This document shows positions 32,159 through 49,423 of a stretch of 64,000 bases of DNA, one piece after another. The first letter of the stretch is position 1. Each line of letters starts with the position of its first letter. The position numbers were made by a program, and so were the translations under genes. The stretch lies in IMG/VR virus record IMGVR_UViG_3300035183_001077; one strand, 5' to 3'. Source of the stretch: an uncultured virus (IMG/VR IMGVR_UViG_3300035183_001077) (lineage: Duplodnaviria > Heunggongvirae > Uroviricota > Caudoviricetes). Below the pieces are notes generated by a model that made no database searches, had not been told where the DNA came from, and was given only the letters and a program-made list of their open reading frames with translations.

Positions 32159-33088
32159 ATGTACGAACACGAACGAGAAGTGCAGGAACTCAATCAACGA
32201 TTCTTGCAGGCCCTGACTACACCCGGCATGGAGAAGGTAGCTCAGGATGAAGTTACTGAATTTACTCGTACATACGTACTTGAAATGGGATTCAAGCGTA
32301 AGATTCTCCCTCCTATTCCGATTAGCCCTGATAAACTGGATCGCCGGTCTGATACTGATAAACCTTACGTAATCGTGGATAAGGAACCTGGTATGCCTCC
32401 GGCTATCAGCGTTCCTCTTGGTACGCTGCCGACAGGTTTCTACATCCGTGGGCCTCGTTACGAAGTTAAATTCCAGAGAATTCTCAGCCCGAAATTCTAT
32501 AAGGATATTGGTGAACTGGCTACGTATCGTATGGATATTCGTCAGGTTCTGGCTGATAAGATTGTTAAAGTAATTCAGTTCGAGGAAGACAGCAAATTCC
32601 TTAAAGCTGTTGATTCCATCCTTGTTGGTCCTAACACGAATGTTCCTCGTGTTGGTGTGCCGCTGTGGCGTCAATTTGTTGGTGGTTTGTCCCGTGTCAA
32701 CTGGGTTGAATCTACGAAGATTATGGCTTCTACTAAATTCCACCTTGAACCCAGCTGCATGTTGCTCAATACGCTGACTTATCGTGAATTCCTGAAATGG
32801 GGTCGTGATGAGTGGGGTGGCGATGTTGCTGCCGAGATTATTCGGACTGGTAATGTTATCGAATCTATCGACAATATTAAATTGATTCTGACGATTAAAC
32901 ACGAACTCGTACCGACGAACACGATTTACTACTTTGCCGAACCGCGATTCCTTGGTAAGTTCTTCGTCGTAGATGATATTACAATGTATGTGAAGAACAC
33001 GGCTTACATCATTGAATTCTGGGCTTACGAATTCATCGGCTCGGCAATCGGCCACGGCGCTGGTCTTGCTCGTGCCGATTTCGTGTAA
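32159..33088 (+). CDS. major capsid protein (HK97-fold predicted)
   Basis: 309 aa; F.RKILPP, E-loop-like segment, spine-helix-like DIRQVLADKIVKVIQFEEDSKFL, C-terminal FWAYEFIGSAI; codon bias typical of high expression; MEKVA/Q candidate cleavage site. Confidence 0.8.
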   Translation: MYEHEREVQELNQRFLQALTTPGMEKVAQDEVTEFTRTYVLEMGFKRKILPPIPISPDKLDRRSDTDKPYVIVDKEPGMPPAISVPLGTLPTGFYIRGPRYEVKFQRILSPKFYKDIGELATYRMDIRQVLADKIVKVIQFEEDSKFLKAVDSILVGPNTNVPRVGVPLWRQFVGGLSRVNWVESTKIMASTKFHLEPSCMLLNTLTYREFLKWGRDEWGGDVAAEIIRTGNVIESIDNIKLILTIKHELVPTNTIYYFAEPRFLGKFFVVDDITMYVKNTAYIIEFWAYEFIGSAIGHGAGLARADFV

Positions 33089-33378: not shown

Positions 33379-34245
33379 ATGCCGTCATTAGACGATTTAA
33401 TTGTCGTTTCGCCAGCCGTTACAAAGTTTGAGAACTCCCCCGTTTGGGAGAAGTTGCGTTCTGTTGAGATTTACCAGAATTCTAAAGTTAAATTGCGTTT
33501 GAATTTTTTAACTAATGATGGTAGAAATGTGGATTTTTCTGGGATAACCGGTTTATCGTTACCTAAACTTCGTTTATTTGAAGTTACAGGACTTGATCGC
33601 CGTATGCTGATTGAAGTAGAAGGTACAGCAATTGATGAATCTAAAGGTCTTGTAGAGTTTGATTTGACTGGAAAGACAAATCAACCTGGAATTTATTATG
33701 GAAATTATTTTAGAACAGACAGTTCTGGAAATCCTGTTGTTGTAACGCCAATGTACATTTCTATAATTCCTTCATTATTAAACGTAGATACATCCGGGCC
33801 ATTGATGATCGGGCCTATAAGCAGTAAAGAATTACAGCTGGCAATACGTGGCAGTTCTCCTGTAGAAAGTACACTGCTTATGGCAATTGAATTTGACTTA
33901 TCTGAAATTGTTCAAGCCTTACGTTGGCCTGTGGAATTCTGGAATACAAGTGCTCCTGATATTGGTGTTTATTATCATACGGGTAACTTCCCATACAAGT
34001 ATCAGTGGGTTGAGGCTGCTATTGGAGAACTGCTTATTCTTGGTGCTCACCGCTACAGAAGAGACCACTTACCTAACAAAGTTGAGGGCGGTCTAGCTCT
34101 GGATGATTTGAACAAATTTGCTCCATACGATCAGGCAGGATGGCAAAGACGTCAGGTTTATCAACGTTTTGTCCGCAACCGCAAAGTTACACTCGATATC
34201 GCCGGTGGTTATGGAAGTGTCCGCGGCGTTATGACCCGTTTCTAA
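33379..34245 (+). CDS. putative head-tail adaptor/neck protein with N-terminal Ig/BppU-like domain
   Basis: Beta-rich N-half (KGLVEFDL...PGIYYG), helical C-half; follows the capsid gene. Confidence 0.5.
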   Translation: MPSLDDLIVVSPAVTKFENSPVWEKLRSVEIYQNSKVKLRLNFLTNDGRNVDFSGITGLSLPKLRLFEVTGLDRRMLIEVEGTAIDESKGLVEFDLTGKTNQPGIYYGNYFRTDSSGNPVVVTPMYISIIPSLLNVDTSGPLMIGPISSKELQLAIRGSSPVESTLLMAIEFDLSEIVQALRWPVEFWNTSAPDIGVYYHTGNFPYKYQWVEAAIGELLILGAHRYRRDHLPNKVEGGLALDDLNKFAPYDQAGWQRRQVYQRFVRNRKVTLDIAGGYGSVRGVMTRF

Positions 34246-35081
34246 AAATTATAAATCAAAACTTCTGTTATTTTAAATCGTGAAGATAATCTAGCCCCAA
34301 CATGGTAAAAGTGATCTATCATTAGATATTTGTATTTTCCAGGTTTTATCCAGAACGTATCAGCATAGATGTTTATTTTCTTACCATCATCGTACCATGA
34401 CGATAAGATAAATTTGCACGGTAACCTTTGCAATATACGAGCCAGTTCTTTTTCATCTTTTTCTGACCATAGATTGTAATAATTCGTGTTTCTATTGACG
34501 TAAGGCGGGTCAACATAAACCAGATCATTTTCTTTCACACTCTTTAATATTTCTTTGTAATCACCACATACAAACTGCCAGTTTTTTGATTTAATAATTT
34601 CTTGTGTTTTTCTGACGATATTGACTACTTTTGTTATGTAGCTTTTAGTAAATTTACCAGGCCTGCGACAGAAAGGTGTATTGAATTTTCCAGAACTGTT
34701 GAAGCGTATCACTCCATTGAAACATGCCCGACTTAAAAAAATAAAATCAAGAGAATTAGGAACTGCGTTGAATTTGTCGCGTATTTTGTAATACGCCGCT
34801 CCATTAGAGTTTTTTAAGCGTATGCTGATTTCTTCCAGGTATTGTCGTACCTTCTCTGGTGTGATAGCGTCTAATTGTAAGTCTTTGTAAAGTTGTGTAA
34901 TATGTGGATTGATATCTGATAGAACTGCTTTATCAGGTTGCAGGTTCAAGGCTACAACGCCGGAACCGCAAAAAGGTTCATAGTACGTATCAAAGGAAAT
35001 GTTGGAACACAAATTTAGTATATGAGGAATCAGCCTGGTTTTTATACCCTGGATTTTTAATGGAGGTAAAATGATCGACAT
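34242..35081 (-). CDS. orphan N6-adenine DNA methyltransferase, M.EcoRV-like
   Basis: PPLKIQGIK, EPFCGSG, FNGVIRFNS, DPPY and HFYHVGA, as recalled for M.EcoRV. Confidence 0.85.
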   Translation of the reverse strand: MSIILPPLKIQGIKTRLIPHILNLCSNISFDTYYEPFCGSGVVALNLQPDKAVLSDINPHITQLYKDLQLDAITPEKVRQYLEEISIRLKNSNGAAYYKIRDKFNAVPNSLDFIFLSRACFNGVIRFNSSGKFNTPFCRRPGKFTKSYITKVVNIVRKTQEIIKSKNWQFVCGDYKEILKSVKENDLVYVDPPYVNRNTNYYNLWSEKDEKELARILQRLPCKFILSSWYDDGKKINIYADTFWIKPGKYKYLMIDHFYHVGARLSSRFKITEVLIYNF

Positions 35082-35084
35082 GGG

Positions 35085-35855
35085 TTAATACTTAATTTTC
35101 TGCAGAATAGTAACCATTTTACTATTAATATCCACTCCGCATATGTATTCTCCTACATCTCTTCCTAACTTATCTGTCGAGAACAAAATTACATCATCAG
35201 TTAGAAAATCAATTGGACGTAATTGATTTATTCCATGTTTGAATATTGTGTCATAGTCAATAGTAGATATAAGCTCTAAGCGGGGAAATGTTAGTACATG
35301 TATTCTACTATCCAAAATACTCTCGACATCATCATCATCGAAATATTCAGCATCATGTACGCAAAAAGCAATCCTAGACATATCCTGATTGATTATATAA
35401 GGTTTAGACGCATCGAATATAATTATTTCTTCACAATATTCTTCTCCCATGTCTTTCTCATTGGGAGATCTTACCCAAACTGCATGGCCTTCTTTTTGAG
35501 CGGATATCTCATTGCCTTTGAAATTTAGCCGGTAAGTTATTGCGATCACTTCTTTAGATTTATTTGACCAGCCAAGAATAAGCATAATATGCTTATCTTT
35601 ACAGCTATTTGCATTTTTAGGCAGTATTTTCAAGTGAAACGGGGTAAAGCTCTTCCCGTATTCAGTGTTTGTTTCTTCGTTACGTATGACAAATGACCAA
35701 AATGAAATAAGCTTTTTTTCATAAATCATGCTTCCTTGTTTACTGTCGAAACACACAACAATCACGCTGTGATGGTTATTGTGAGAGGTAAAAGCAAAAA
35801 CGTACTTGAAATCGCTATTGTCATAAGACCTGTTTAGGGTTGTTGTGCGGTACAT
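35085..35855 (-). CDS. accordion family protein (divergent member)
   Basis: 256 aa beta-rich; similar size and C-terminal pattern to neighbours. Confidence 0.65.
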   Translation of the reverse strand: MYRTTTLNRSYDNSDFKYVFAFTSHNNHHSVIVVCFDSKQGSMIYEKKLISFWSFVIRNEETNTEYGKSFTPFHLKILPKNANSCKDKHIMLILGWSNKSKEVIAITYRLNFKGNEISAQKEGHAVWVRSPNEKDMGEEYCEEIIIFDASKPYIINQDMSRIAFCVHDAEYFDDDDVESILDSRIHVLTFPRLELISTIDYDTIFKHGINQLRPIDFLTDDVILFSTDKLGRDVGEYICGVDINSKMVTILQKIKY

Positions 35856-35868
35856 TGTTCATCGTGTT

Positions 35869-36546
35869 TCATATTTTCTGATTGTAATACAAAAGGCCAG
35901 TTTCAATATCATAAAACTGGCCGAAGGTCTTACCCAACGACAAATCATGGTATACAACGGCTAGTGCTTTGTCGTTTACCAGATTAACATGTTCTATTCT
36001 TTTAATATTCTTACCAATTGGTATAGTTAATTTGAATACCTGATCTCCAGTGAGTATGTTCCAAATTATTACACTTAATTGATTGTTATCATAATTATCA
36101 TATTCCCGTATCGTGGTAGCAAAGCCGAACAATTCAGGTCTGGTTGGAACTTGCAATAAATTTTCTACAACGTAACCAACCCAATAGCGAATATTGAGAA
36201 CATGAATATCGTAGCAAGGGTTGGCTTCGATAGTACCATTATTATTTTCCAACCTGTAAGCAAGATATTTCATTTGTGCAGACCGGCTGCTTGTATAATG
36301 GAAAGCTATAAGTATCAGAAAATTGCCTACATGATAAACACTGCAAACTTCATGGTCTTTTATCAATCGTTCCGAACGTTTGTCAGGTAAAGTTACAATC
36401 TTCAGAATTGAGCAATGCTGTGCGTCTGTTGGATGTATGCCGTACCTATTACGATCTGGAGCTTTTAATTTTTCTACTTTAGCGACAAAATGTAAGCTAT
36501 CAATAATTCCGCACGTATATCCTTTACCATACTTCATAGTTTTCAT
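35869..36546 (-). CDS. accordion family protein (WD40-like blades)
   Basis: VIIWNILTG and FYDIETG. Confidence 0.7.
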   Translation of the reverse strand: MKTMKYGKGYTCGIIDSLHFVAKVEKLKAPDRNRYGIHPTDAQHCSILKIVTLPDKRSERLIKDHEVCSVYHVGNFLILIAFHYTSSRSAQMKYLAYRLENNNGTIEANPCYDIHVLNIRYWVGYVVENLLQVPTRPELFGFATTIREYDNYDNNQLSVIIWNILTGDQVFKLTIPIGKNIKRIEHVNLVNDKALAVVYHDLSLGKTFGQFYDIETGLLYYNQKI

Positions 36547-37145
36547 TCTTGTTTCTCCGTTGTTATTGATATAACAGGCATACGGTAATCAAGATCATAC
36601 ACTAACGCTCCTGAGTAAAGATAAACAATTATCAAATTGTTATAAAACTCAATATTTTCATATCCGGAAACACTGTCGTGGTTATTTATTTCAAAAACGT
36701 GCTGCAGAACTATTTTGCCTGTTTCCAGTTCCCAGACGACGAGTTTAAATTTTTTTGCTTCACTGTTGGCTGCGCTGCGATCTTCAAACCATGTGGCCGC
36801 TAAATTCTTATCTGGGTGAAATGCTATTGACTGCCTGTCTACTATATCTTTGACTGGCAAAGCATAAAGAGGTTCGATTTCTGATGGTGATAGTATCTTA
36901 AATACAAAAATATTATTCCCCCCATCAATATCTGGTATGACCAGTAGATATTTGCTGTTATGAGAAACCAGTACAATCCAATCTCCATGCGGCGAAATCA
37001 CATAAGGCCATTTATATATTTTGCCAGTGTCCAGTTCAAGGACTTTGATTAGTGATTCATCTTTTTTGATAGAAGAATATGTATTTACGATAACGTAGTC
37101 ATGGTTACCGTATCTGAATGCTCGTCCCATTGCAGTATCCACCAT
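36543..37145 (-). CDS. accordion family protein (WD40-like blades)
   Basis: SIAFHPD, LVVWELETGK and VYDLDY. Confidence 0.7.
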   Translation of the reverse strand: MVDTAMGRAFRYGNHDYVIVNTYSSIKKDESLIKVLELDTGKIYKWPYVISPHGDWIVLVSHNSKYLLVIPDIDGGNNIFVFKILSPSEIEPLYALPVKDIVDRQSIAFHPDKNLAATWFEDRSAANSEAKKFKLVVWELETGKIVLQHVFEINNHDSVSGYENIEFYNNLIIVYLYSGALVYDLDYRMPVISITTEKQE

Positions 37146-37786
37146 CTAGCATCTACTGGTTCGTGATATATACCGGTATTTTCCGGATAGAATAAGATTT
37201 TATTGTTATTTATAAATTCCAACGCACCAATACTGGTTTTGGTATGTTTTAAGGCTTTTGAAAAGATTATTTTACCAGTATGTAATTTCCAAACCAGAAT
37301 ATTAGATATCGGCAGGTTATGTGTATGCTTTTGGCGATCAAACGAGAATACTGCTACAGCCAGATTATTGTCTGGTGATATTGCCAGTGTTTCTACACCC
37401 GACACGTATCCTAATGGTAAATAGAAATCTATATAAGGGTATCTAAAGTCATGTTCATCATATTCTGAAGAAATTTCATAAACTTTTTTGAATAATACTT
37501 TATTTCCAGTTATTTCCGGGGTTATACCAATTACACTGAAAGTATATTTCAATAAAACAATTTTATTGTCGCTGGAAACTTTAATATCGTAAAGTTTATC
37601 TGTTCTTTTATCAAACCATTCTGGAACGGTAGCGAATCTGTATGGTATTGGAAAAGAGGCCAGAGAAGTAACGTTTACGATATATGCCTGGCGGAAATCC
37701 TTTTCCGAGGTTACTATGATGTGGAGCTCATTGTTTATTTCTATCGTTCTTTTTGTCAGGTTCATCTTCAGTTCTCTTGGAAGCAA
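37085..37786 (-). CDS. accordion family protein (WD40-like blades)
   Basis: LAISPDN and ILVWKLHTGK. Confidence 0.7.
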   Translation of the reverse strand: MLPRELKMNLTKRTIEINNELHIIVTSEKDFRQAYIVNVTSLASFPIPYRFATVPEWFDKRTDKLYDIKVSSDNKIVLLKYTFSVIGITPEITGNKVLFKKVYEISSEYDEHDFRYPYIDFYLPLGYVSGVETLAISPDNNLAVAVFSFDRQKHTHNLPISNILVWKLHTGKIIFSKALKHTKTSIGALEFINNNKILFYPENTGIYHEPVDARWWILQWDEHSDTVTMTTLS

Positions 37787-38171
37787 CTAATTTATCGTTT
37801 TCAATAAATTCAAAAGCATGAGTTACTACTTGCGTAAGCCAGTTCAATAAGGCGAGTTTTACTAAATCAATGAAATTATCTGGTATATTTTTCTTATTCT
37901 TCAGTATTTTATCAATGTAGTCAAACGATAAAGCAGACTGATCAAGCCATATTCTAACCGTACTCCAGGTGATATTCCTAACCACATTTTCGATTAACTT
38001 GGATATTGGTAAATCTGAGTTTTTGTCAGCCAATTGTTTAAAAACTATCATCAGATATGCACCGACACAGCGAGGGTCATCAACCATTTCCTGGGAAACT
38101 TTTTGTGATAACAAAGCTAATTTATCGTAATTTAAATATTCCTTGATTTTCTTTATTTCTGGTGTTTTCAT
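37728..38171 (-). CDS. hypothetical helical protein
   Basis: 147-aa ORF interrupting the array. Confidence 0.6.
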   Translation of the reverse strand: MKTPEIKKIKEYLNYDKLALLSQKVSQEMVDDPRCVGAYLMIVFKQLADKNSDLPISKLIENVVRNITWSTVRIWLDQSALSFDYIDKILKNKKNIPDNFIDLVKLALLNWLTQVVTHAFEFIENDKLVASKRTEDEPDKKNDRNKQ

Positions 38172-38185
38172 AGGTGGTACCGCCT

Positions 38186-38872
38186 TTATTGCCTTTTACG
38201 TGCATCAATAATCTCGCAAGTGCTGACTTTAACAATGTAAAGTGCTCTAGGTTGATCACCTGAGTCTGTCGAATAAATTTCTTCATATATTATTAATTGG
38301 TCGTTGTCAATGAAACTTATGTGCGGGAAATCCCTTGCATTCTCGTAGTAATATTGTATTCCAAGAACGTCTGGTAATTTACATGCGGCAATAGGCGAAA
38401 GATAATTAATTTCTTCGTTTGTTAATTTCCAGAATGCTAGATGCGAATCATACATAATTGGGGAATCGTCCTTACGTCCACATGCAACCATCACACCGAT
38501 TGTAGTTTTATCCGGTGAAACTAAACAGTGCCTTAGCAGGAAATGAGAAAACGATGGGAAAATCCGTTTCATATTCCATGAAACAATTCGTATTGGTTCA
38601 ATGAATACGTGATGTATTTTACTATTAATTGCATATTCAAGAGAATAAAGATCCATTGTCCCGCTTCGCAAACCTACAAGTAAATAATTGCCGTCAATAC
38701 ATGTTATTAATTTTATTCTTTCGTCAGCAGAATCGAAATCAATAAGTTCGATACAATTGTTGCATTTATTACATTTGCATGTTGCTGACGAGTATTGCAA
38801 TGACAATTCCCAACTATATTTTATATCCAGCCAGAATGTTATATCTTCTTTTACCCAGGCAAAAGGGCTCAT
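38186..38872 (-). CDS. accordion family protein
   Basis: LVSPDK, LAFWKL and ISFIDNDQL. Confidence 0.7.
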   Translation of the reverse strand: MSPFAWVKEDITFWLDIKYSWELSLQYSSATCKCNKCNNCIELIDFDSADERIKLITCIDGNYLLVGLRSGTMDLYSLEYAINSKIHHVFIEPIRIVSWNMKRIFPSFSHFLLRHCLVSPDKTTIGVMVACGRKDDSPIMYDSHLAFWKLTNEEINYLSPIAACKLPDVLGIQYYYENARDFPHISFIDNDQLIIYEEIYSTDSGDQPRALYIVKVSTCEIIDARKRQ

Positions 38873-38892
38873 GCCGTGCTACCTGCGTTTGT

Positions 38893-39639
38893 TCATGTCT
38901 GGTTATTTGATACTTGTACAGTAAGTGGTTCGACAGCTGTAATAATCTTCATAGTAAGATCATAAATCAGGCTATAACTTTTCAAGTCTCCCTTTTCAGA
39001 CTTTATTGTAATACCTAATCGCATTTGATCTTCATTTATAATTTGCAGGTAATCTTCAATTAAATCGCACTCATATTGTAAACCAATCTCAGTAATTCGA
39101 TGAGTAAGATCGTTGTCAATTATAAGGTCTTCTGAAGGACTGCCTATTTTCCATAACAACATAGGACAATTTATAGTTCTATTCCTATAATTGTAAATCC
39201 TTGTTATCATACAGAAGTACTTGATATCCGCATTATATGACATAAATGTGTTAATTCTACGTTGAATAGGGTTGTATCTATAATGGTAATACTTTTTATA
39301 AAAATCAGATATATCGGTACTGTATAGTTCCTTAACGAAGGCTGCGTCTCTATAAATCTTTTTTATCTTGCCAAATTTGATAAAGTAATGCTCATCATTT
39401 GGATATCTCTCTCGCTCATTAAATACATAAACAATATAGTCATCCGACGTAGCTGTCATAAATTCAAAATCTGAGGAATAGGCTGGTGTACGACCTTCTT
39501 CAAAAACGCCAAGTATTTCTCTTTTATTATCAACTAGTACCCAATATGATGAACCACTGTAAACATTCTTATAACATGCCAACTTATAATCTTTATCCTC
39601 ATAATGGAATATATCAGCTATATCGTTATTTTTACTCAT
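38893..39639 (-). CDS. accordion family protein, close paralogue of 39681
   Basis: YEDKDYKL, MLLWKIGSP and YDLTMK. Confidence 0.75.
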   Translation of the reverse strand: MSKNNDIADIFHYEDKDYKLACYKNVYSGSSYWVLVDNKREILGVFEEGRTPAYSSDFEFMTATSDDYIVYVFNERERYPNDEHYFIKFGKIKKIYRDAAFVKELYSTDISDFYKKYYHYRYNPIQRRINTFMSYNADIKYFCMITRIYNYRNRTINCPMLLWKIGSPSEDLIIDNDLTHRITEIGLQYECDLIEDYLQIINEDQMRLGITIKSEKGDLKSYSLIYDLTMKIITAVEPLTVQVSNNQT

Positions 39640-39680
39640 GCCGTGCTACCTGCCTTTGTTCATGTCTGGTTACCTGATAC

Positions 39681-40415
39681 TTATACAGTGAGTTGCTCGA
39701 CAGCTGTAATAACCTTAATGATTGGATCATAAACAAGGCTATAATTTTTCCAATCTCCATTTTCGGACTTTACTGTAATACCTAAACGTATTTGATCTTC
39801 ACCTATGATTTGCAGATAATCTTCAATTAAATCGAATTCCTGTTGTGAGTTAATCAATTGTAAGTCAGCCATTCGATGAATAAGACCATTGTCAATTATG
39901 AGGCTATCTGACGGATTTCCTATTTTCCATAATAATATTGGGCATTCCTGCATTATATGTTTGTGATCATAAACCGTTCTTATCATGCAGAAGTGCTTGA
40001 GATTTGCATTATATGCCATAAAGGTATTAATTCCTGGTTCAATTTCCTTGTATTTATAAAAATAATACTCCTTATAAAAATCTGATATATCGTGCCGATA
40101 TAATTCTTTGATTAAGACTTCGCTTCCGTTAATTTTTATCGTGCCAAATTTAATAAAGTATTCCCAACGTGGATAGATATTCACCTCAGCAAATATATAA
40201 ATAACATAGCCATCCTGCGTAGACGTTATAAATATAAATTTTGAAGCCTTGGCAATCCTACTATCTTCTTCAAAAATATTAAATATTTCTCTTTCATTAT
40301 CAACAAGTACCCAATATAATAAACTAGAGACTGACTTATAAGGTTTCAATTTATAATCCTTTCCCTCATAATATAATGTATCGGTTAAACCGGTATTATT
40401 TGTGTTATTGTTCAT
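39681..40415 (-). CDS. accordion family protein
   Basis: YEGKDYKL, ILLWKIGNP and YDPIIK. Confidence 0.75.
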   Translation of the reverse strand: MNNNTNNTGLTDTLYYEGKDYKLKPYKSVSSLLYWVLVDNEREIFNIFEEDSRIAKASKFIFITSTQDGYVIYIFAEVNIYPRWEYFIKFGTIKINGSEVLIKELYRHDISDFYKEYYFYKYKEIEPGINTFMAYNANLKHFCMIRTVYDHKHIMQECPILLWKIGNPSDSLIIDNGLIHRMADLQLINSQQEFDLIEDYLQIIGEDQIRLGITVKSENGDWKNYSLVYDPIIKVITAVEQLTV

Positions 40416-40432
40416 GCTTTGTTATCTGTTAT

Positions 40433-41158
40433 TTATGAAGTAGTCTGATTAACGCTTGTAAAAATTTTCAGATTGAGGTCATAAGTTAAATTCCAGATTC
40501 TCGAACCCTCTTCTCTTGACCATGTTGCAGCAACTACGGATATTTGGTCTTCATTTAAGATTTGCAGAGAATTTTCATCAAACGACGGCGGAGATTTTAA
40601 TGGCAATTTATTAATTCGGCGAGAAAAATAATTGTCGATTATTGGATTTGAAGGATCGCTCATTTTCCAGAATAATATTGGATATTCGGAGGTAACATCG
40701 TTATTGTCTGATTTAATATTTAAAACGCTTACTAGCATACAAAAAGACTTGACGTCAGCATTGTATGCTGCAAAGGTGTTAGTTCCAGGTCTGACGTTAT
40801 CATGTCTATCATAATAGCATTTCTTATAAAAATCTGTTATATCGGCACTATGTTTTTCTTTAATAAAGGCTTTGTCTTCGTTAATTTCTACTTCACCGAA
40901 TTTAATAAAATACCGCCAGTTTGGATAGCTGTCTGGTTCGGTAAGTATATAAATAATATGATTATCTGCTGTAATTACTACAGAATTAAAGTAAAATGTA
41001 GAAACTGGTATACGGCGTTTTTCGAGAATGCTAATTCTTTCGTTGTTGTCAGTATCAACAAATACAAAACCTAGGCAGTAAGAATACCGATCATATTTCA
41101 GCTTATACTTCTTATCTTTATACTGCAATATATTAGTTATGCCGCTGTTCTTGTTCAT
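40433..41158 (-). CDS. accordion family protein
   Basis: YKDKKYKL, AYNAD, ILFWKMSDP and YDLNLK. Confidence 0.75.
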   Translation of the reverse strand: MNKNSGITNILQYKDKKYKLKYDRYSYCLGFVFVDTDNNERISILEKRRIPVSTFYFNSVVITADNHIIYILTEPDSYPNWRYFIKFGEVEINEDKAFIKEKHSADITDFYKKCYYDRHDNVRPGTNTFAAYNADVKSFCMLVSVLNIKSDNNDVTSEYPILFWKMSDPSNPIIDNYFSRRINKLPLKSPPSFDENSLQILNEDQISVVAATWSREEGSRIWNLTYDLNLKIFTSVNQTTS

Positions 41159-41196
41159 AGTTGATTCTTTAGTTCCTCTCGTAATATTGGCATAAA

Positions 41197-41868
41197 TTAG
41201 CTGCTCTCTGGTTCGAGTGTAATGATAGTTTTCAATGTCAGATCATAAACTAAGTTATACCTTTTTGTATTTTCCGATTTATTGGCACTTTTGATAGTCA
41301 TTCCGATTTTATCATTTCCGATCATTTTCAGAGTATTAGGTACTACATGGAAACCAAGCAACAAGTTATTTGTGTCTAGCAAACTCTCCAGTATAAGGCT
41401 TGAAGGGTCGTCTATTTTCCAGAAAAGTAAGGTAAAGTTTATACATCCTATTATGCAAACACGTTTCGATTCCAACTCATATAACGTTTCTAGATTATCT
41501 AATATAGTAGAAAACGGATGTGTTTTATGGCTATCGACAAACTTTTCATAAGGACCAGTAATATCAACGCTGTATTTTTCTACAAATTTAACTTTATTGG
41601 ATTTGGTTATTTCTAAAATACCGGCTTTGATAAAATAGCGGTTAATACGGTAAATAGATCTATCCCATTCTTCTACTATGGCTACTAAATAATTATCCGG
41701 TGTAAACGCCGCAAATGTATCTCGGCACAAAAGATAATTTTCATTCTTCAGATGAATAGCAAAATAATTATCGTACCTGTCAAGCAATCTCCACACACCA
41801 AACATATTCATTAAACGATACTTTTTTCCACCGTACCAGAGCGTTTGTTTCAGGTGTTTGGTATTCAT
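41197..41868 (-). CDS. accordion family protein
   Basis: YGGKKYRL, LLFWKIDDP and YDLTLK. Confidence 0.75.
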   Translation of the reverse strand: MNTKHLKQTLWYGGKKYRLMNMFGVWRLLDRYDNYFAIHLKNENYLLCRDTFAAFTPDNYLVAIVEEWDRSIYRINRYFIKAGILEITKSNKVKFVEKYSVDITGPYEKFVDSHKTHPFSTILDNLETLYELESKRVCIIGCINFTLLFWKIDDPSSLILESLLDTNNLLLGFHVVPNTLKMIGNDKIGMTIKSANKSENTKRYNLVYDLTLKTIITLEPESS

Positions 41869-41880
41869 TATATGGCTTTC

Positions 41881-42573
41881 CTATTTACCGATAGGTTCTC
41901 CAGTGTCTTCCACTGATACAATGGCTCCCAGACCGAAATCATATGTTATAACTGTTGTCGTCGAATATCCTCGTTTGTATTCACGAGTTCCAACAAGTTG
42001 TATTTGATGTTCATTGATGATTGATAAGCTTCCTTTCTTTATTGTAATAGACATATCCTTAAGCCAATTTAGTTCTTTGCGTAAATCTTTGATTAGTATC
42101 TTATCGGGACTAGCTAATCCCCAGAAAAACGCTGTCTTAGAATATTTCAAGTTGAATGTACAAAAGCGTTTGCAATCTGCATTATATGCCGCTTCAACTT
42201 CATCTCCGCAAAATGGCGGATAACAAGGAAAATAGTCGGTTATATCAACCATATAATTGCTTTTAAAAATAGCTTTACGTTTATTTATTTTTACCTTACC
42301 GACCACCAGAAAGAATTTTAAATCATCTTCCTCTATTATTGACGCACTAACTACGGTTATATACTGCCCATCTGATGTAAAGCCTGACAATGAATATGCT
42401 ATTTTGTAGTCAATGTCATAACCAATGTCATCGTCAATATCATTAAGGTCATCAATATGTATGTTAATTTCTTTGCCATGTTTATCTTGCAGCACCCAAG
42501 GCAAAATTAATTCGTAAGACTTCCCTTTATGACAAATTCGATCCGCTAGCTTCTGGTTCTCTAGCTGTATCAT
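41881..42573 (-). CDS. accordion family protein
   Basis: EAAYNADCK, AFFWGL and YDFGLG. Confidence 0.75.
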   Translation of the reverse strand: MIQLENQKLADRICHKGKSYELILPWVLQDKHGKEINIHIDDLNDIDDDIGYDIDYKIAYSLSGFTSDGQYITVVSASIIEEDDLKFFLVVGKVKINKRKAIFKSNYMVDITDYFPCYPPFCGDEVEAAYNADCKRFCTFNLKYSKTAFFWGLASPDKILIKDLRKELNWLKDMSITIKKGSLSIINEHQIQLVGTREYKRGYSTTTVITYDFGLGAIVSVEDTGEPIGK

Positions 42574-42612
42574 TTATTTCTCTTTTATTACTTGATCGAC
42601 GATTCAGCCATT

Positions 42613-43287
42613 TTATTCGATAGATACAATAGCTCTTAGACTAAAATCGTAAGTTATTACCACATCCGTCGTATAATATTCTTCTTCCTCTTCCTCTTCA
42701 TCTTCATCTTCTGTTTCTATTCTACGAGTACCAGCTAACTGTATCTGATTTTCATCAATAATTGATAAACTTCCTTCCTTTATTTCAATAGACATATCCT
42801 CAATCCAATATAGTTCTTTATTTAAATCTTTGATTATTATATTATTTGAGTCAGCATACAGTTTCCAGAAAAATGCAACTCTATAGCAACTTAAATCGAA
42901 TGCGCAAAAACATTTACAATCCGCATTATATGCGGCTTCAACACTACCGAGCTCACCAGAATCGAAGTTTGGATACTCGTAAAAATCGTGGGTTATATCA
43001 ACCAGACGATATTCTTCGAGAGTAACCTTGTACCCATTTACCTGTATTTTACCGGCTGCAAGAAAATATCGCCGATCCTTTGGTGCACTGATTACGGTTA
43101 TATATTGTTTGTCTAACGTAAAAGCTGAGAATTTATATGCGATTTTATAGCCATTACCAACATGAATAAATAACTTATTGTTATATCTATCTTGCAGCTC
43201 CCACGGTGAATGTATTTTGTAATACCTTCCTTTACACCGAATTTGATCTGTCAGATTTTCCATCTCCTGTTTTTTCAGAAACGCCAC
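42613..43287 (-). CDS. accordion family protein
   Basis: EAAYNADCK, AFFWKL, poly-Glu insert and YDFSL. Confidence 0.75.
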   Translation of the reverse strand: MAFLKKQEMENLTDQIRCKGRYYKIHSPWELQDRYNNKLFIHVGNGYKIAYKFSAFTLDKQYITVISAPKDRRYFLAAGKIQVNGYKVTLEEYRLVDITHDFYEYPNFDSGELGSVEAAYNADCKCFCAFDLSCYRVAFFWKLYADSNNIIIKDLNKELYWIEDMSIEIKEGSLSIIDENQIQLAGTRRIETEDEDEEEEEEEYYTTDVVITYDFSLRAIVSIE

Positions 43288-43317
43288 TTTGTTTCTCCTT
43301 TCAGCTGTACTAACTTC

Positions 43318-43419
43318 TTATAGTTCAACAATTTGCAGCACCCAAGGCAAAATTAATTCATAAGACTTCCCTTTATGACAAATTCGATCCGCCAGCTTCT
43401 GGTTCTCCAGCTGCACCAT
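43318..43419 (-). pseudogene. 33-aa chimeric junction ORF created by the duplication
   Basis: MVQLENQKLADRICHKGKSYELILPWVLQ (start of the 41881..42573 gene) fused in frame to IVEL* (end of the 44127..44393 gene). Confidence 0.75.
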
Positions 43420-43457
43420 TTATTTCTCTTTTCTTACTTGATTATTGATTTAGCTCT

Positions 43458-44096
43458 TTATTCTATAGATACAATAGCTCCTAGACTAAAATCGTAGGTT
43501 ATTACCACATCCTTCTGGTATTCTTCTTTATCTCCTGTTACACGAGTACCAGTTAACTGTATCTTATTTTCATCAATAATTGATAAGCTTCCGTTCTTTA
43601 TTTCAATAGACATATCCTCAATCCAATTTAGTTCTCTATTTAAACACTTAACCTTTATACCATTTGAGTTGGTAGACAGTTTCCAGAAAAATGCGACTTT
43701 AAAAAACTCTAAATCCAATGTACAAAAGCATTTGCAATCCGCATTATATGCGGCTTCAACAGTACCGGTATCGAAGTTCGGGTAATAGAAATAATCGTTG
43801 GTTATATCGACACGATGATTTTCTTTAAAGGTAAATTTGTACCCATTTACCTGTATTTTACCAGCTACAAGAAAATATCGCCGATAATCTGATGTGCTGA
43901 TTATAGTCAGATACTGCTTATCTGATGTAAAAGCTGAGAATTTATCCATTATTTCGTAACCTTTACCAACATGAATAGAGAAAATATTCTTATGTCTATC
44001 TTGCAGCCTCCACGGTGAATGTATTTCGTAATATCTTCCTTTATACCGAATTCGATCTGTCAGATTTTTCATCTCTTGTTTTGCCAGAAACGCCAC
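43458..44096 (-). CDS. accordion family protein, close paralogue of 42613
   Basis: Collinear with the 42613 protein; AGGAGG RBS with GTG start. Confidence 0.75.
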   Translation of the reverse strand: MAFLAKQEMKNLTDRIRYKGRYYEIHSPWRLQDRHKNIFSIHVGKGYEIMDKFSAFTSDKQYLTIISTSDYRRYFLVAGKIQVNGYKFTFKENHRVDITNDYFYYPNFDTGTVEAAYNADCKCFCTLDLEFFKVAFFWKLSTNSNGIKVKCLNRELNWIEDMSIEIKNGSLSIIDENKIQLTGTRVTGDKEEYQKDVVITYDFSLGAIVSIE

Positions 44097-44126
44097 TTTG
44101 TTCCTCCTTTCAGTTATACTAACTGC

Positions 44127-44393
44127 TTATAGTTCAACAATTATATATTCAGGATTATTGTGCTCATTAACTATGAACAACACCAATATTTTATCTTGAT
44201 ATAAATTAAGAGCTGTAATTTTCAGATTTTTGAAACATATAGGATACTCAGAATAAAAAAGCTGTCTTGTTATATTAACTTTACCAACTCTATTTTTTAT
44301 AAATTCTTCTAAATCACCATAATCATAAAGCCTTATTTTATTCGGATATTCTATCATCAACTGAATTATTATTTTGGGTATCAATTCCAACAT
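44127..44393 (-). CDS. hypothetical protein
   Basis: AGGAGG RBS; 88 aa. Confidence 0.6.
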   Translation of the reverse strand: MLELIPKIIIQLMIEYPNKIRLYDYGDLEEFIKNRVGKVNITRQLFYSEYPICFKNLKITALNLYQDKILVLFIVNEHNNPEYIIVEL

Positions 44394-44613
44394 CTGTGCC
44401 CCTCCTTGGTGGTAGTTGTTTCAATTGCTTCAAGAATTCGTTTAGCTGGCAGTCAGGCAAATGCTGATTGGTATATGATAATCCACCACATACAGGGCAG
44501 ATTAAATCTTTACTGCAATTACATACTGTAAAATCAGGTACCCATTCCAAGCTTTCCAACAAATCTCGTAATTTATATAAGTCAATTTGCTGTTTCTGGC
44601 CGTCCATGCCCAT
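44338..44613 (-). CDS. small putative zinc-binding protein
   Basis: CPVCGG...H..DC. Confidence 0.55.
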   Translation of the reverse strand: MGMDGQKQQIDLYKLRDLLESLEWVPDFTVCNCSKDLICPVCGGLSYTNQHLPDCQLNEFLKQLKQLPPRRGTDVGIDTQNNNSVDDRISE

Positions 44614-45040
44614 ATTCCTTTATTTTGCTGATTATGTTATCCAAAACATAATATCTATTAACTAACGCATCCTGATTACAACTTTTCGATAAAGTGATGA
44701 AAGTCTGCCACGCTTCCGTGGGAACTAAAAAGAAACATGTTTTTATGTTATTGAAAGTTACGATAATATCAAGAACATTATTATCAAAATCAATTTTTAC
44801 GTTATTATCTTCAGACTCACCAAAATGTTTAATTTTGGATTTAATATATTCTGCCATATCGGACAGGTAAAGTTTTATTACATAATCGAACTTACTCGGA
44901 TTTAACGAAGCAACATCCATATTGGTATTTACCCATTTATAGAAGTTATTAAAATTGGCAACCTGCTGTAGTAACTGAGTAACTGCAGATATTGAAAAGT
45001 TGATATTCTCGGTGCTGCTTTGCTCTAGTTGCGTACTCAT
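44582..45040 (-). CDS. hypothetical protein
   Basis: 152 aa, tightly packed. Confidence 0.6.
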   Translation of the reverse strand: MSTQLEQSSTENINFSISAVTQLLQQVANFNNFYKWVNTNMDVASLNPSKFDYVIKLYLSDMAEYIKSKIKHFGESEDNNVKIDFDNNVLDIIVTFNNIKTCFFLVPTEAWQTFITLSKSCNQDALVNRYYVLDNIISKIKEYGHGRPETAN

Positions 45041-45044
45041 ATGG

Positions 45045-45410
45045 TTATCCTGTTAATAGGTATGTCGGTACTATTTTCGTTATTGCACGATTATCCTTTG
45101 TTATTAAATCCATTCTTATATTAAAGTTACTATCTAAATCGGCCCGGAATTGCTTAAACGGGAAGTCTTGGAAAAAGTTTTTCATATTCTCGAAAATATT
45201 CCTTCCCATGAATATTAGTGTCCCTATTTTCGAGTTATCAGCCGGTTGTGTTTCGGACAAATTTGTGAACATCATCCATGACAACACAAATTCATGTAAC
45301 CAATATTCTGTTTCGTCGGTAATGAAATCAGAATTTAAGAAATTTAAATTTTGTTTCAACGTAATTTCTGGTTTTGACAAGTCAAGAATTGAAATGTCTA
45401 GTCTTTTCAT
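45045..45410 (-). CDS. hypothetical protein
   Basis: GGGAG RBS; 121 aa. Confidence 0.6.
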   Translation of the reverse strand: MKRLDISILDLSKPEITLKQNLNFLNSDFITDETEYWLHEFVLSWMMFTNLSETQPADNSKIGTLIFMGRNIFENMKNFFQDFPFKQFRADLDSNFNIRMDLITKDNRAITKIVPTYLLTG

Positions 45411-45486
45411 ACAATTTCTCCCATTAAGTCTTTGCTAGGATTATACTGGCGTCAGCGTTATTTGGCTGCTTTCAAGACGAATTTTA

Positions 45487-46224
45487 TTATTCTGAAAATT
45501 CTACTTCGGAGATTAGTCCGTAATCGAGGTTATAACGACATTTGATTGCTTTAATACCTATTTTACTTTCAGCGTTTAATGATGAGATAGATATAAGCAG
45601 TCTATCTGGTTGTTCTATAGCTACGCTAGTTCTGAAAGGCAAGTTTATTGGCGTATTATCTAAAACGTTTGTTAATGCTTCATGCAGTCGATTATCTACA
45701 CGATAATTCGTTGGATTAGATAATTCCCATATGATTACCGCTGGATCGAGCAGGGTTTTCATATAATAACCGGAACTTTTATTAATAAATAATACCATAG
45801 CTGCTAAATTAAATTGAGAATTATCATTGTAATCTTGGAATCCAAAAAATGTATTGACGCAATTTCCTTTCAAATTAAAAACTTTCAATAATTTTACTGA
45901 ATTTTCGAGACAAAACGTAAACCTGTTTTCAGTTTTTTCTATTCTTCCGAAATATAATGCAAGATAAGATAGAAGTAATAACTTATTGTTGGCTGTTACA
46001 ATAACTCTAAAATTTGGTGCTATCGCCCATTCAGGTTTGATACCGTTCAGGGAATAAAAATTCTTGTGCGTTTTAGTTATGGCGTCGTAAGTATTATCAT
46101 CTGGATCAATTACTTGTACTCTATATCCGGGCACACGCTTGTATCTACGTTCATAATAGCATTCGGCGCATTCGATATTATAAAATTTATCATCAATCTT
46201 GTATCTCCTCCCTGCGGTACTCAT
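45487..46224 (-). CDS. accordion family protein, triplicated subfamily
   Basis: GIKPEWA.APNF, VIIWELSNP and CRYNLDYG. Confidence 0.75.
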   Translation of the reverse strand: MSTAGRRYKIDDKFYNIECAECYYERRYKRVPGYRVQVIDPDDNTYDAITKTHKNFYSLNGIKPEWAIAPNFRVIVTANNKLLLLSYLALYFGRIEKTENRFTFCLENSVKLLKVFNLKGNCVNTFFGFQDYNDNSQFNLAAMVLFINKSSGYYMKTLLDPAVIIWELSNPTNYRVDNRLHEALTNVLDNTPINLPFRTSVAIEQPDRLLISISSLNAESKIGIKAIKCRYNLDYGLISEVEFSE

Positions 46225-46301
46225 TTATATTTCCTCTGGTATCAGATGGCGGTGGGTTTTGTTTAATACGACTAGTTAGGAATTAATATTATCTTTTCAA
46301 A

Positions 46302-47057
46302 TTAATCTTGTTGTTTCAAAAATTCCATTTCAGAAATTAGTCCATAATCGAGGTTATAACGACACTTGACTTTTTTAATACCTATTTTACTTTCAGTGTC
46401 TAATGACGAAATGTATACGAGCAATCTATTTGGTTTTTCTATAGTTATGCGAATTTTAAAAGGCCAGTTTATCGGCGTACTATCTAAAACATTTACTAAT
46501 TCTTCACGCAGTCGATTCTCTACACGGTAATTTGTTGGATTAGATAATTCCCATATGATTACCGCTGGATCGAGCAGGGTTGTTCTAGAATAACCAGAGC
46601 CTTTATCAATAGATAATACCATAACTGCTAAATTAAATTTGGGATTATCATCATAATCTCGGAGTTCAAAAAATGTATTGGTGCAGTTTCCTTTCAAATT
46701 AAACGCTTTCAGTAATTTTACTGAATTTTCGAGACGAAACGTAAACTCATTTTCAGTTTTTTCTATTCTTCCGAAATATAACGTGAAATAGGAAAGGAAT
46801 GCTAATTTACCGTTAGCTGTTACAAAGATACTAAAATTAGGAGCAACTGCCCATTCAGGCTTGATACCTTTTAGATCATAAGAATTACCGTACATTTTAA
46901 CTATGGCGTCATAAGTATTGTAATTATCACAATTTAGGTCAATGACTTTTACTTTATATCCGTGCACACGCCTATGTTTACGTTCATAATAGCATTCGGT
47001 GCATCCAATATTATACAGCTTATTACCAATCTTGCATTTCCTTCTTGTGATAAGCAT
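46302..47057 (-). CDS. accordion family protein, triplicated subfamily
   Basis: Collinear with the 45487 and 47136 proteins. Confidence 0.75.
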   Translation of the reverse strand: MLITRRKCKIGNKLYNIGCTECYYERKHRRVHGYKVKVIDLNCDNYNTYDAIVKMYGNSYDLKGIKPEWAVAPNFSIFVTANGKLAFLSYFTLYFGRIEKTENEFTFRLENSVKLLKAFNLKGNCTNTFFELRDYDDNPKFNLAVMVLSIDKGSGYSRTTLLDPAVIIWELSNPTNYRVENRLREELVNVLDSTPINWPFKIRITIEKPNRLLVYISSLDTESKIGIKKVKCRYNLDYGLISEMEFLKQQD

Positions 47058-47135
47058 TTATCTCTCCTCCGGTACATGGTGGCAGTGGGGTTTTGCTTAA
47101 TACAATCAATTGGAAATCAATATTACCTTTCCAAA

Positions 47136-47888
47136 TCAATCTTGTTGTTTTAAAAATTCCATTCCGGAAATTATTCTGTAACCTAGATTATAACGGCATC
47201 GTATTTCTTTAATTCCTGTTTCTTTATCGGTACTTAATGACGAAAGGGATATAATCAACTGATCTGGATGTTCCAGAGTTACGTTTGTTGTAGGAGACCA
47301 TTTCAATTGTATGTTATCAAAAAGATTTTTCAGTTCTTTGTGCAGCTGATTATCTACATAACAATTTTCTGGATTTGATAATTCCCACACAAGAATTGCT
47401 GGATCGAGTATGATTGTATAGTAAGGCCCGGAACGCCTTACTATGGATAACGCTATAACTGCTAAATTTAGTTGGGAATTATCCTCGTAGCTTAGAAACT
47501 TAAATAATGTGTCGGTACAGTTTCCTTTCATATTAAATGCTTTCAATAATTTAATCGAATTTTCGAGATGAAATTTGAATTCTTCTCCAGTTTTTTCTAT
47601 TCTTCCGAAATACAATGTGAAATAGGAAAGGAACATTAATTTATTGTTAGCTGTTACAAAGATATTAAAATTCGGAGCAACTGCCCATTCAGGTTTGATA
47701 CCTTCCAGATTATATATTTTATCGTGGGGTGTAATTACAGTATCATAAGCATCATCGTCATACCTTCGATCAACGACTTTTATTGTATAGCCTGGCTTAT
47801 TTATGTGTTTACGCTGATAATGACATATAAAATATCCAATTTCGTACCATTTATCGTCAATCTTATATTTCCTTTCTGCTACGTACAC
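47136..47888 (-). CDS. accordion family protein, triplicated subfamily
   Basis: GIKPEWAVAPNF, ILVWELSNP; ends MEFLKQQD like 46302. Confidence 0.75.
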   Translation of the reverse strand: MYVAERKYKIDDKWYEIGYFICHYQRKHINKPGYTIKVVDRRYDDDAYDTVITPHDKIYNLEGIKPEWAVAPNFNIFVTANNKLMFLSYFTLYFGRIEKTGEEFKFHLENSIKLLKAFNMKGNCTDTLFKFLSYEDNSQLNLAVIALSIVRRSGPYYTIILDPAILVWELSNPENCYVDNQLHKELKNLFDNIQLKWSPTTNVTLEHPDQLIISLSSLSTDKETGIKEIRCRYNLGYRIISGMEFLKQQD

Positions 47889-48149
47889 CTATACCTCTAC
47901 TGGTATCAGGGCCATGATTGGGGTTTTTTCACTTAATCTGATTAACCAAAACTTAAAATCGCTTTTCAGCATCACTGTAGAGTCGTCTTTAATAACTGGT
48001 ACAGACAATTGAGGTTCACCAACAACCCAATCAACATTTTGATCGCTCATCAGTTCAGCTAACTTATCAACAAATTCAGGATTAATTGAATGCTTGATGG
48101 CCTGCTGCAAAAACTTCTGCGTTACACAGAGCTCTTGCGTCGCTTTCAT
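47889..48149 (-). CDS. hypothetical protein
   Basis: GGAGGTG RBS; 86 aa. Confidence 0.6.
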   Translation of the reverse strand: MKATQELCVTQKFLQQAIKHSINPEFVDKLAELMSDQNVDWVVGEPQLSVPVIKDDSTVMLKSDFKFWLIRLSEKTPIMALIPVEV

Positions 48150-48978
48150 CTTTCACCTCCATCCATGATATATCCGTCTTACCTGCAAAACGCTTTTTCA
48201 TAGTTTCAATTGCCTGAGGGTTGCTATCAATTAAAACAAATCTTCTACCTAATTCCAATGCTGCCACACCAGTTGTCCCACTACCGGCGAAAAAATCCAA
48301 AACCCAATCACCAGGATTGGACGAAGCTTCTATAATTCGACGTAAAATGCCTAGAGGTTTTTGAGTAGGGTAACCTGTTTTTTCAGAGCTATTCGTAGGA
48401 ACTATCGTGTGCCACCAAACATCGGTAGGTTCTTCGCAATTCAGACCTGGATAAGCAAATTTTATTTCAGTTATTTTATCTATGTTGAAAATATGATTCT
48501 CAGGACTTTTTACGTAAAATAGAATATTGTCATGTTTTGGAGGCCATTTATTACGTGGTCTGCCACCGAAGTCGTAAGCCCAGATTATTTCATTCATAAA
48601 ACAATCTTTACCAAAAATATCATCTAAAATAATCTTGCAATAATGAATTTCCCTGTAATCAAGATGGCAATAGAAAGAACCGTTTTCAGCCAGAACGCGG
48701 TAAGCCTCTTCAAGCCTTGGTATCATAAAATCCCAGTACTTTTCTGAACTCTCAAAAACATCACTGTAACTCTTTTCATCAACTACTTCAGATACATATT
48801 GTTTATTAGCAAAACCTTTCCTAGTTCCACCAGTACTGGTTTGTTTTACTTTAATTGATGTTCTTTTCTGCTGTTTTCCGGTATTGAACGGCGGATCAAC
48901 ATATATCAAAGTAAAAAAATGGGAAGGAAGATGTTTCAACACGAGTAGATTATCGCCATGAATAATGGCAGAGCTCAT
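48082..48978 (-). CDS. orphan N4/N6 DNA methyltransferase (beta class)
   Basis: YVDPPF precedes YPTQKP and DFFAGSGTT. Confidence 0.9.
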   Translation of the reverse strand: MSSAIIHGDNLLVLKHLPSHFFTLIYVDPPFNTGKQQKRTSIKVKQTSTGGTRKGFANKQYVSEVVDEKSYSDVFESSEKYWDFMIPRLEEAYRVLAENGSFYCHLDYREIHYCKIILDDIFGKDCFMNEIIWAYDFGGRPRNKWPPKHDNILFYVKSPENHIFNIDKITEIKFAYPGLNCEEPTDVWWHTIVPTNSSEKTGYPTQKPLGILRRIIEASSNPGDWVLDFFAGSGTTGVAALELGRRFVLIDSNPQAIETMKKRFAGKTDISWMEVKDESDARALCNAEVFAAGHQAFN

Positions 48979-48984
48979 ATTGCT

Positions 48985-49320
48985 TTATTCCACCGGCTCA
49001 ATAATAGCAGTCATTGATCCTTTGCAACGAGGAATCATAGGATCTGGACCAAAACTATGAATTTGTTCCTGCTTCAATTCAGCATGCTCTTTCGTAGTTG
49101 TAATCAGAATGGCCCTGCCAGTATTATGAACTTCAAGAGCTATCTGCATACCTTTTTCCTTAGGAAAACCGAATAATATTTTCAACATGCGTACTACATA
49201 TGTAAAAGTATGATCATTGTCATTCAGTAAAACGACGTTATACTTCGGACAATGCTTTTCTTTTTGCTGATCTTTTTTCTTTTGTTCTGGAATTACAAGC
49301 GTTTCTGCTGCCATACTCAC
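48985..49320 (-). CDS. clpS: ATP-dependent Clp protease adaptor ClpS
   Basis: YNVVLLNDNDHTFTYVV..L...F, EVHNTGRA and EHAE. Confidence 0.9.
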   Translation of the reverse strand: MSMAAETLVIPEQKKKDQQKEKHCPKYNVVLLNDNDHTFTYVVRMLKILFGFPKEKGMQIALEVHNTGRAILITTTKEHAELKQEQIHSFGPDPMIPRCKGSMTAIIEPVE

Positions 49321-49339
49321 CTCCTTTTTTTACTACTTG

Positions 49340-49413
49340 CGAGCCCGGGTGGAGTCGAACCACCAACCTGCGGCTTAGAAGGCCGCTGCTCTATCCAGTT
49401 GAGCTACGGGCTC
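49340..49413 (-). tRNA. tRNA-Arg (anticodon TCT), CCA not encoded
   Basis: GAGCCCG/CGGGCTC acceptor stem, TAGCTCAACTGGATAGAGC D-arm, GCGGC-CTTCTAA-GCCGC anticodon arm, GGTTCGAC T-loop. Confidence 0.95.
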
Positions 49414-49423
49414 GCAACAGCAC

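Follow-up and report, generated by a model that had tools for sequence, protein, structure and literature searches.

Between positions 35085 and 47888 of IMGVR_UViG_3300035183_001077, a stretch of 64,000 nucleotides from an uncultured virus of the Caudoviricetes (this whole stretch is referred to below as the window), the minus strand carries a tightly packed row of 15 candidate open reading frames (ORFs), each encoding 195–256 amino acids. Twelve of these genes fall into three sequence groups, the largest of which is confidently modelled as an all-beta, beta-propeller-like protein; the junction of a tandem duplication can still be read within that group, and a relative of the virus appears to carry five fewer copies. 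The explanation towards which we lean, with somewhat better than even confidence, is that the array represents a family restricted to one lineage, whose small, soluble, all-beta members, duplicated in tandem and variable in copy number, would act as modules that bind host or phage proteins. The family is unnamed in any of the libraries searched, even though the fold of its largest group is predicted with confidence, and the array is in any case a well-defined set of candidates for anti-defence and interaction screens.

Three sequence groups in one row of genes

The preliminary description of this stretch, made from its letters alone, had named 15 ORFs as diverged paralogues of a single protein. 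All of them are present on the minus strand, with the sole amendment that the starts of two (g37085 and g36543) had to be corrected from database orthologues, which begin MNLTKR and MGRAF, respectively. Every space-filling ORF of at least 80 amino acids between 35085 and 47888 lies on this strand, and neighbouring genes overlap or are separated by 0–78 nucleotides, the only exception being a gap of 170 nucleotides between g43458 and g42613 that contains the duplication relic discussed below.

An all-against-all BLASTP comparison of the candidates placed 12 genes in three groups. Group A (38893..44096) comprises seven paralogues of 212–248 amino acids, namely g38893 (38893–39639), g39681 (39681–40415), g40433 (40433–41158), g41197 (41197–41868), g41881 (41881–42573), g42613 (42613–43287) and g43458 (43458–44096), all of which match one another, with E values from 1e-4 to 1e-106, and share 16 invariant columns in their alignment. 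Group B (45487..47888) is formed by three paralogues of 245–251 amino acids with mutual identities of 53–69%: g45487 (45487–46224), g46302 (46302–47057) and g47136 (47136–47888). Group C is the pair g36543 (36543–37130, 195 amino acids with the corrected start) and g37085 (37085–37765, 226 amino acids, likewise corrected), which are 26% identical (E 4e-7). The other three candidates, g35085 (35085..35855, 256 amino acids), g35869 (35869..36546, 225 amino acids) and g38186 (38186..38872, 228 amino acids), have no match at E<0.05 to another candidate in this comparison. The divergence is graded with the nearest neighbours most alike, as had been proposed, since the closest pairs are adjacent genes (g42613 and g43458, 68%; g45487 and g46302, 69%; g38893 and g39681, 57%), and the tree concurs.

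The links between the groups come from profiles, pairwise matches and motifs, the profile ranks being taken among the 240 window frames of at least 60 amino acids and the scores being set against 4200 shuffled proteins. The profile of group A places the B genes at ranks 8–10, straight after the seven A genes themselves, and gives g47136 a score of 15.1 bits, compared with 11.0 for the best shuffle; beyond its own members, the next four matches of the group C profile are g46302, g41197, g43458 and g35869; the A+B profile scores g37085 at 11.5 bits, a value reached by none of the shuffles; and with the B+C profile six of the seven A genes score within the best 47 of the shuffles. Several independent pairwise matches join A and B (E 2.4e-5 to 6e-4), and orthologues of A genes from other contigs match g47136 at E 2.4e-5 (P0002) to 4.5e-4. 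Aligned profile to profile with hhalign, A and B give E values of 8.5e-4 to 1.3e-3, B and C 2.4e-4 to 3.7e-3, and A and C 0.03–0.064. The internal strand with the pattern hydrophobic-hydrophobic-W-(K/E/N)-hydrophobic, already pointed out in the preliminary description, occurs in 13 of the 15 candidates, at 62–71% of their length, and in none of 44 control frames of at least 150 amino acids from other parts of the window; in g41881 it takes the variant form FFWGL, from g35085 it is missing, and in the joint alignment the order of the motifs is collinear. The terminal motifs have fared less evenly: the N-terminal one is found in only four of the 15 as originally written, although in nine when loosened, and the C-terminal Y(D/N)(L/F) strand, widened to Y(D/N)(L/F/P), is carried by 11 of the 15 candidates but also by six of the 44 controls. 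The profile ranks, the shuffle controls and the W motif, each weak but all consistent, thus join the three groups, and a common ancestry of all of them would be the natural inference.

As for the single genes, g38186 is a probable distant member of the family. With the A+B+C profile it scores 9.4–9.5 bits, as the top non-member of the window frames (the next has 5.0) and at a level reached by six of the shuffles; hhalign aligns it to the joint profile at E 0.0039 over 73 collinear columns; its C-terminal leave-out profile gives 9.2 bits (seven shuffles as high); and it carries AFWKL at 64% of its length. The case of g35869 is divided, in that IIWNI at 71% of its length and a sixth place among the 240 frames by the group C profile (7.0 bits) speak in its favour, while its hhalign E values of 0.14–0.54 are like those of non-member neighbours and its leave-out profile reaches only 0.9–1.5 bits, with 848–1349 shuffles as high; it is a possible member. 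For g35085, hhalign gives E 0.15–0.72 and the leave-out profile 2.1–4.8 bits (100–558 shuffles as high), and its neighbours in the ESM-Atlas bear propeller names (TolB-like, WD40-like, PD40, LpqB and YqgU; 0.87–0.92) at low recognition, which we take as a lead only. By profiles, these last two genes are indistinguishable from non-members. For a single family of 15 there is thus weak though consistent evidence in the case of the 12 genes, whose three groups are linked above the shuffles; g38186 is a probable addition, and g35869 and g35085 are unproven.

The row is interrupted by five small genes on the same strand, to which the preliminary description made no reference: g37728 (37728–38171, 147 amino acids), between g38186 and group C, and g44127, g44338, g44582 and g45045 (88, 91, 152 and 121 amino acids, within 44127..45410), between groups A and B. 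None of the five has a BLASTP or profile tie to the family, or a significant match in Pfam or PHROGs. One of them, g44338 (44338–44613), has five cysteines among its 91 residues, including a CPVC pair, and may be a small zinc-binding protein lodged within the array. In the region of group C, g37085 overlaps g36543 by 46 nucleotides (37085–37130) and g37728 overlaps g37085 by 38 (37728–37765); the orthologues of g37085 keep its overlapped C-terminus.

The predicted fold

The AlphaFold2 model of g40433, a member of group A, was built from 11 sequences and reaches a predicted local distance difference test score (pLDDT) of 84.6 and a predicted template modelling score (pTM) of 0.84; it is all-beta save for two short helices, with 19 strand elements of at least three residues. 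In a VIA structure search against 48,161 solved chains, the best 50 rows have Z scores of 8.0–10.6, headed by DDB1 BPA (Z 10.6, root-mean-square deviation (rmsd) 4.4, 174 residues aligned), DPP10 and eIF3b, and judging by their titles we take all 50 entries to be beta-propeller domains (DDB1, DPP10/DPP4, eIF3b, amine dehydrogenases, NHL and many WD40). On such propellers (DDB1 BPA, eIF3b/eIF2A, DPP4/DPP10, YncE-like) the model superposes along consecutive blades, at Z 9–10.6 and rmsd 4–5.6 over 158–195 aligned residues, and by these matches it agrees with the side-by-side packing of four-stranded antiparallel blades that marks the propeller fold. The fold class of group A is thus beta-propeller-like in a confident model. 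Residues 8–241 align onto contiguous arcs, 165–234 residues long, of larger propellers, and no closed propeller of four or five blades stands among the best 50 rows; because of these alignment ranges, the group A protein may well form an open arc, some four blades long, with the curvature of a larger ring. The earlier suggestion that these proteins are too short for a seven-bladed ring agrees with this geometry.

Other searches with the same model gave less. Foldseek support is weak (best E 7.6e-4, query-normalised TM-score at most 0.45) and extends to weak matches with apyrase, GH43 and GH68, and the viral models of BFVD yielded generic kelch or propeller matches only. A homodimer prediction for g40433 scored 0.14 against a mark of 0.42, which counts neither for nor against the pairing of copies.

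At the level of sequence the family stands apart from the known propellers. WD40 domains usually have seven blades, and closed propeller rings range from four to 12, whereas the array proteins, with their 195–256 amino acids, would accommodate about four. None of the 15 proteins matches a Pfam propeller repeat (WD40, Kelch, PD40 and others) at the curated cut-off, the only such match at E<=1 being that of g38186 to WD40_CDC20-Fz (E 0.085, 12.6 bits, where the cut-off is 200), and no internal repeats were detected when the groups were aligned with themselves by hhalign (best off-diagonal E 0.88 for A, 0.69 for B and 0.1 for C). No family was matched in PHROGs (best E 6.9e-4, over 38 residues at the poly-E tract of g42613), in PADLOC (best E 0.017) or in NCBIfam. 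Group C comes closest to a named kind: g36543 holds a WD40-like stretch, SIAFHPDKNLAA...KLVVWELETGKIV, in which the strand and turn of the form ...VVWELETGK can be recognised; its group has orthologues of 85–89% identity, three of which bear the name 'WD40 repeat protein' in their source; its ESM-Atlas neighbours belong to YncE-like or WD40/eIF2A/ANAPC4_WD40 clusters (0.89–0.95; again a lead only); and the best match of its profile in the PDB is eIF2A, at E 0.11. Judged by fold, then, these proteins come closest to the WD40-like propellers, a kind in which the sequence-based tests of membership fail to place them.

Duplication junction, copy number and selection

In the gap between g43458 and g42613 lies a minus-strand ORF of 33 codons (43318..43419), the first 29 of which copy the start of g41881, with 28 of 29 residues and 82 of 87 bases identical; upstream of it, 42 of 51 aligned bases match as well. 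The likeness breaks off at about 43332/43333, where it gives way to the leader sequence that also precedes g43458. Read from its bases, this relic marks the junction where a unit of 810–844 base pairs was duplicated in tandem, giving rise to g43458 and g42613. The two copies of the unit are 84% identical in DNA and more alike at their ends than in the middle, with synonymous divergence of 0.09–0.25 at the ends and 0.44–0.61 in the middle, a pattern suggestive of subsequent gene conversion or mosaic recombination.

The stretch recurs almost unchanged in two sequencing runs labelled microbial mat metagenome, while a third run, X3, labelled hot springs metagenome, contains a relative that is about 7% diverged, with contigs at 5–12% over 34000–49500 and at about 6–12% where they carry the joints described next. 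In these contigs, three joints, all of them at gene boundaries and with no shared letters at any, connect 38903 to 40418, 41869 to 43461 and 45471 to 46301, and in doing so remove g38893 and g39681, g41881 and g42613 (with the relic), and g45487, so that the relative in X3 appears to carry five fewer copies. A gene accordion is recognised by junctions and by differences in copy number between close relatives, and both are found here, the latter at joints each seen in one contig. The family is accordingly not static, in keeping with the accordion of the preliminary description; its word 'diversifying', in the sense of positive selection, was not borne out. The ratio of nonsynonymous to synonymous substitution rates (dN/dS), calculated by the Nei-Gojobori method over whole genes for 11 paralogue pairs, lies at 0.29–0.52 in ten of them, the eleventh, the group C pair, being saturated, and the sliding windows with values above 1 are short and rest on 2–7 synonymous differences. 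The synonymous divergence (dS) between copies runs from 0.33 to more than 1.

A minor difference concerns the close pair itself: g42613 bears an acidic run, EDEDEEEEEEEE, that is absent from g43458, its closest paralogue. In the part of the X3 relative that matches g43458 there are nine extra bases (insertions of 1, 2 and 6, the last TTCTTC) at window positions 43512–43520, so that the acidic stretch varies in length.

Outside these runs the family is sparse. Word-indexed searches returned four foreign clusters for group A, two for B and four for C, and an exhaustive HMMER search with group A over 1.84 billion representatives returned six proteins, five of them from the same lineage; the sixth, P0022, a repetitive protein of 1523 amino acids, was judged spurious. 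For each of the foreign proteins a single window gene stands out as the best partner, with orthologue identities of 65–89%: for g40433 these are P0002 (89%), P0005 (82%) and P0007 (65%), P0019 pairs with g39681 (72%) and P0013 with g47136 (70%), and the only exception is P0008, about equally close to g43458 and g42613. Most of the duplications are therefore older than the split of these relatives. Scans of viral, metagenome and genome contig sets with groups A, B and C, with P0007 and with the capsid protein found nothing, and no cultured phage matches 38000–48000 by megablast or g40433 by tblastn; the order of genes in relatives was accordingly read from the contigs of the sequencing runs. 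The family is thus nearly confined to this phage lineage, with relatives in a few metagenome contigs.

Possible role, alternatives and genomic surroundings

If we accept the explanation proposed at the outset, the array would have grown by repeated tandem segmental duplication, of which one junction is still visible, and copies would have been gained and lost between close relatives. The proteins would be made inside the infected cell and act there on host or phage proteins, host takeover or counter-defence being the likeliest setting; different copies could recognise different targets, and the turnover of copies would then reflect the changes in those targets. The intracellular binding role is inferred because the array proteins lack hydrophobic N-termini and membrane segments, because their gene context is non-structural, and because their scaffold is of a protein-binding type; that the bound partners are host proteins is our best guess. 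No signal peptide, hydrophobic N-terminus or membrane segment was found in any of them, the maximum Kyte-Doolittle mean over 19 residues being at most 1.43 and the isoelectric points 4.7–9.1.

The gene context is as follows, all on the minus strand. The last gene of the block, just beyond the array, is a D12-class N6-adenine DNA methyltransferase (34242..35081; PF02086, E 1.2e-39). Upstream in the direction of transcription, the array is flanked by an N6/N4 DNA methylase (48082–48978; PF01555, E 7.8e-51) and a homologue of ClpS (48985–49320; PF02617, E 2.8e-19), followed by a pair of MoxR-like AAA+ ATPases together with a protein that carries VWA and DUF2201-type metallopeptidase domains (49424–50575, 51823–53538 and 53513–54733), and at the upstream end of the same block stands a sigma-70-type factor (61048–62253; region 2, E 2.3e-9).

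Several points weigh against this explanation. Beta-propellers in phages are often parts of the virion or of its receptor-binding apparatus. The family has no match in any library searched (Pfam, PHROGs, NCBIfam, PADLOC). A usable model exists for group A only, that of group B (AlphaFold2, five sequences) having failed with a pLDDT of 39.3, and the fold of B, C and the single genes is drawn from weak sequence links and language-model leads, just as the open four-bladed geometry of group A is drawn from alignment ranges and not from coordinates. Between groups, hhalign is poor, with probabilities of 1–43% and E values of 2.4e-4 to 0.064. Each of the X3 joints is carried by a single contig of low depth (4.3–6.2x), with 46, 93 and 255 letters on the shorter sides. 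Finally, scans for promoters (68, compared with 74.8 in shuffles) and terminators (6, compared with 8.4) showed no excess.

The alternative that survives best, unlikely though we consider it, is that the proteins are associated with the virion or bind the host surface, as accessory receptor-binding, lectin-like or decoration modules whose copy number would tune the host range from outside the cell. Propeller folds do occur widely in the tail fibres and appendages of phages; the P68 tail fibre and the GA-1 neck appendage are among the Foldseek matches, if only with weak scores; and about 2 kb separate the start of the array from the gene of the major capsid protein (32159–33088, plus strand). 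That gene, however, lies on the opposite strand, and the array is co-oriented with the methylases, ClpS, the AAA+ ATPases and the sigma factor; moreover, the proteins possess neither an N-terminal anchoring domain nor a signal peptide, match no Kelch or other Pfam repeat, and show no internal repeats of the kind found in lectin propellers (E 0.1 or worse on self-alignment).

It is rather improbable that the row is a hyperplastic region in which three or more unrelated families of small beta-rich proteins have gathered together with orphans, their likeness being convergent or due to chance. This would suit the low hhalign probabilities, the scores of g35085 and g35869, which are those of non-members, the failed model of group B, which leaves a shared fold unproven, and the five clearly unrelated genes interspersed in the row. 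It does not suit the reciprocal enrichment in rank, by which the profile of each group picks the other groups first among the window frames, nor the A-to-B and A+B-to-C scores, which exceed all of the shuffles, nor the independent pairwise matches of A with B; and a W motif at the same relative position in most candidates and in no control, within a collinear order of motifs, is likewise difficult to reconcile with separate origins.

A bolder version of the binding role, to which we give little credence, would have the open half-propellers, unable to close by themselves, complete their ring on another copy or on a propeller or sensor of the host, such as the WD40-type sensor arms of the NTPase-based defence systems that are widespread among mat-forming bacteria, and then either block it or pass it to ClpS and the AAA+ ATPases, in such a way that the turnover of copies would track the defences of local hosts. 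Were the half-propeller geometry and a host-directed role both true, the array would represent a new class of phage host-interaction proteins and a natural example of modular binding by incomplete propellers.

That the copies have no function and are neutral duplicates on their way to decay, left behind by error-prone recombination, is very improbable: the truncated relic, the loss of copies in the relative without obvious consequence and the fairly high dN/dS values would allow it, but all 15 frames are intact despite the synonymous divergence between copies, whole-gene dN/dS is below 1 in every comparison, and single paralogues have conserved orthologues in other contigs.

Large eukaryotic viruses engaged in arms races with their hosts characteristically carry binding scaffolds in tandem families, and to our knowledge clear counterparts in bacterial viruses, with a visible junction and with differences in copy number between near relatives, have rarely been documented; our search of the literature found no paper on arrays of propeller paralogues in phages. 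In the behaviour of its genes the present array resembles the multigene families that poxviruses and giant viruses have of repeat or propeller proteins (kelch-like, BTB-kelch, ankyrin), and likewise the 'genomic accordion' (Elde et al., 2012, as cited in PMC13359090), in that tandem viral paralogues of a protein-binding scaffold differ in number between relatives; poxvirus kelch-like and mimivirus BTB proteins also appear among the BFVD matches, with weak scores. In contrast to those families, the array proteins have no BTB, F-box or other adaptor domain and the host is presumably a bacterium; and in contrast to the poxvirus accordion, the copies are old and diverged, not recent identical amplifications. 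A second resemblance is to T-even phages in which segments with anti-defence genes have been amplified, as reported for T4 tifA (bioRxiv 10.1101/2022.04.14.488369) and T6 SegB (PMC13096335); there too, tandem segmental duplication is reported to leave a novel junction, as here at 43332/43333. Those amplifications are reported to be recent, to have arisen under laboratory selection and to affect genes of known anti-defence function, whereas the duplicates of the array have diverged to 84% identity in DNA.

The wider surroundings add a few observations. The contig to which the window belongs is listed at 137,582 base pairs. By gene content the window is phage-like, with a DNA ligase as well as the major capsid protein, which is 31–33% identical to that of Salmonella phage Arash and of three Vibrio phages (D69, D181 and D148), its nearest cultured relatives, all with genomes of 180–188 kb; in the plus-strand block, most of the large ORFs have no match in PHROGs or Pfam. 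A third DNA methyltransferase is encoded at 3633–4487 on the plus strand, which brings the number of such genes to three in 64 kb, two of them bracketing the array. Immediately upstream of the array, the ClpS homologue beside two AAA+ ATPases and the VWA/DUF2201 protein makes up an unusual group of genes reminiscent of proteostasis, and between ClpS and the first of the ATPase genes there is a tRNA-Arg (anticodon TCT; 49339–49413, minus strand), at whose site contigs from many other organisms stack to a depth of about 500–1000.

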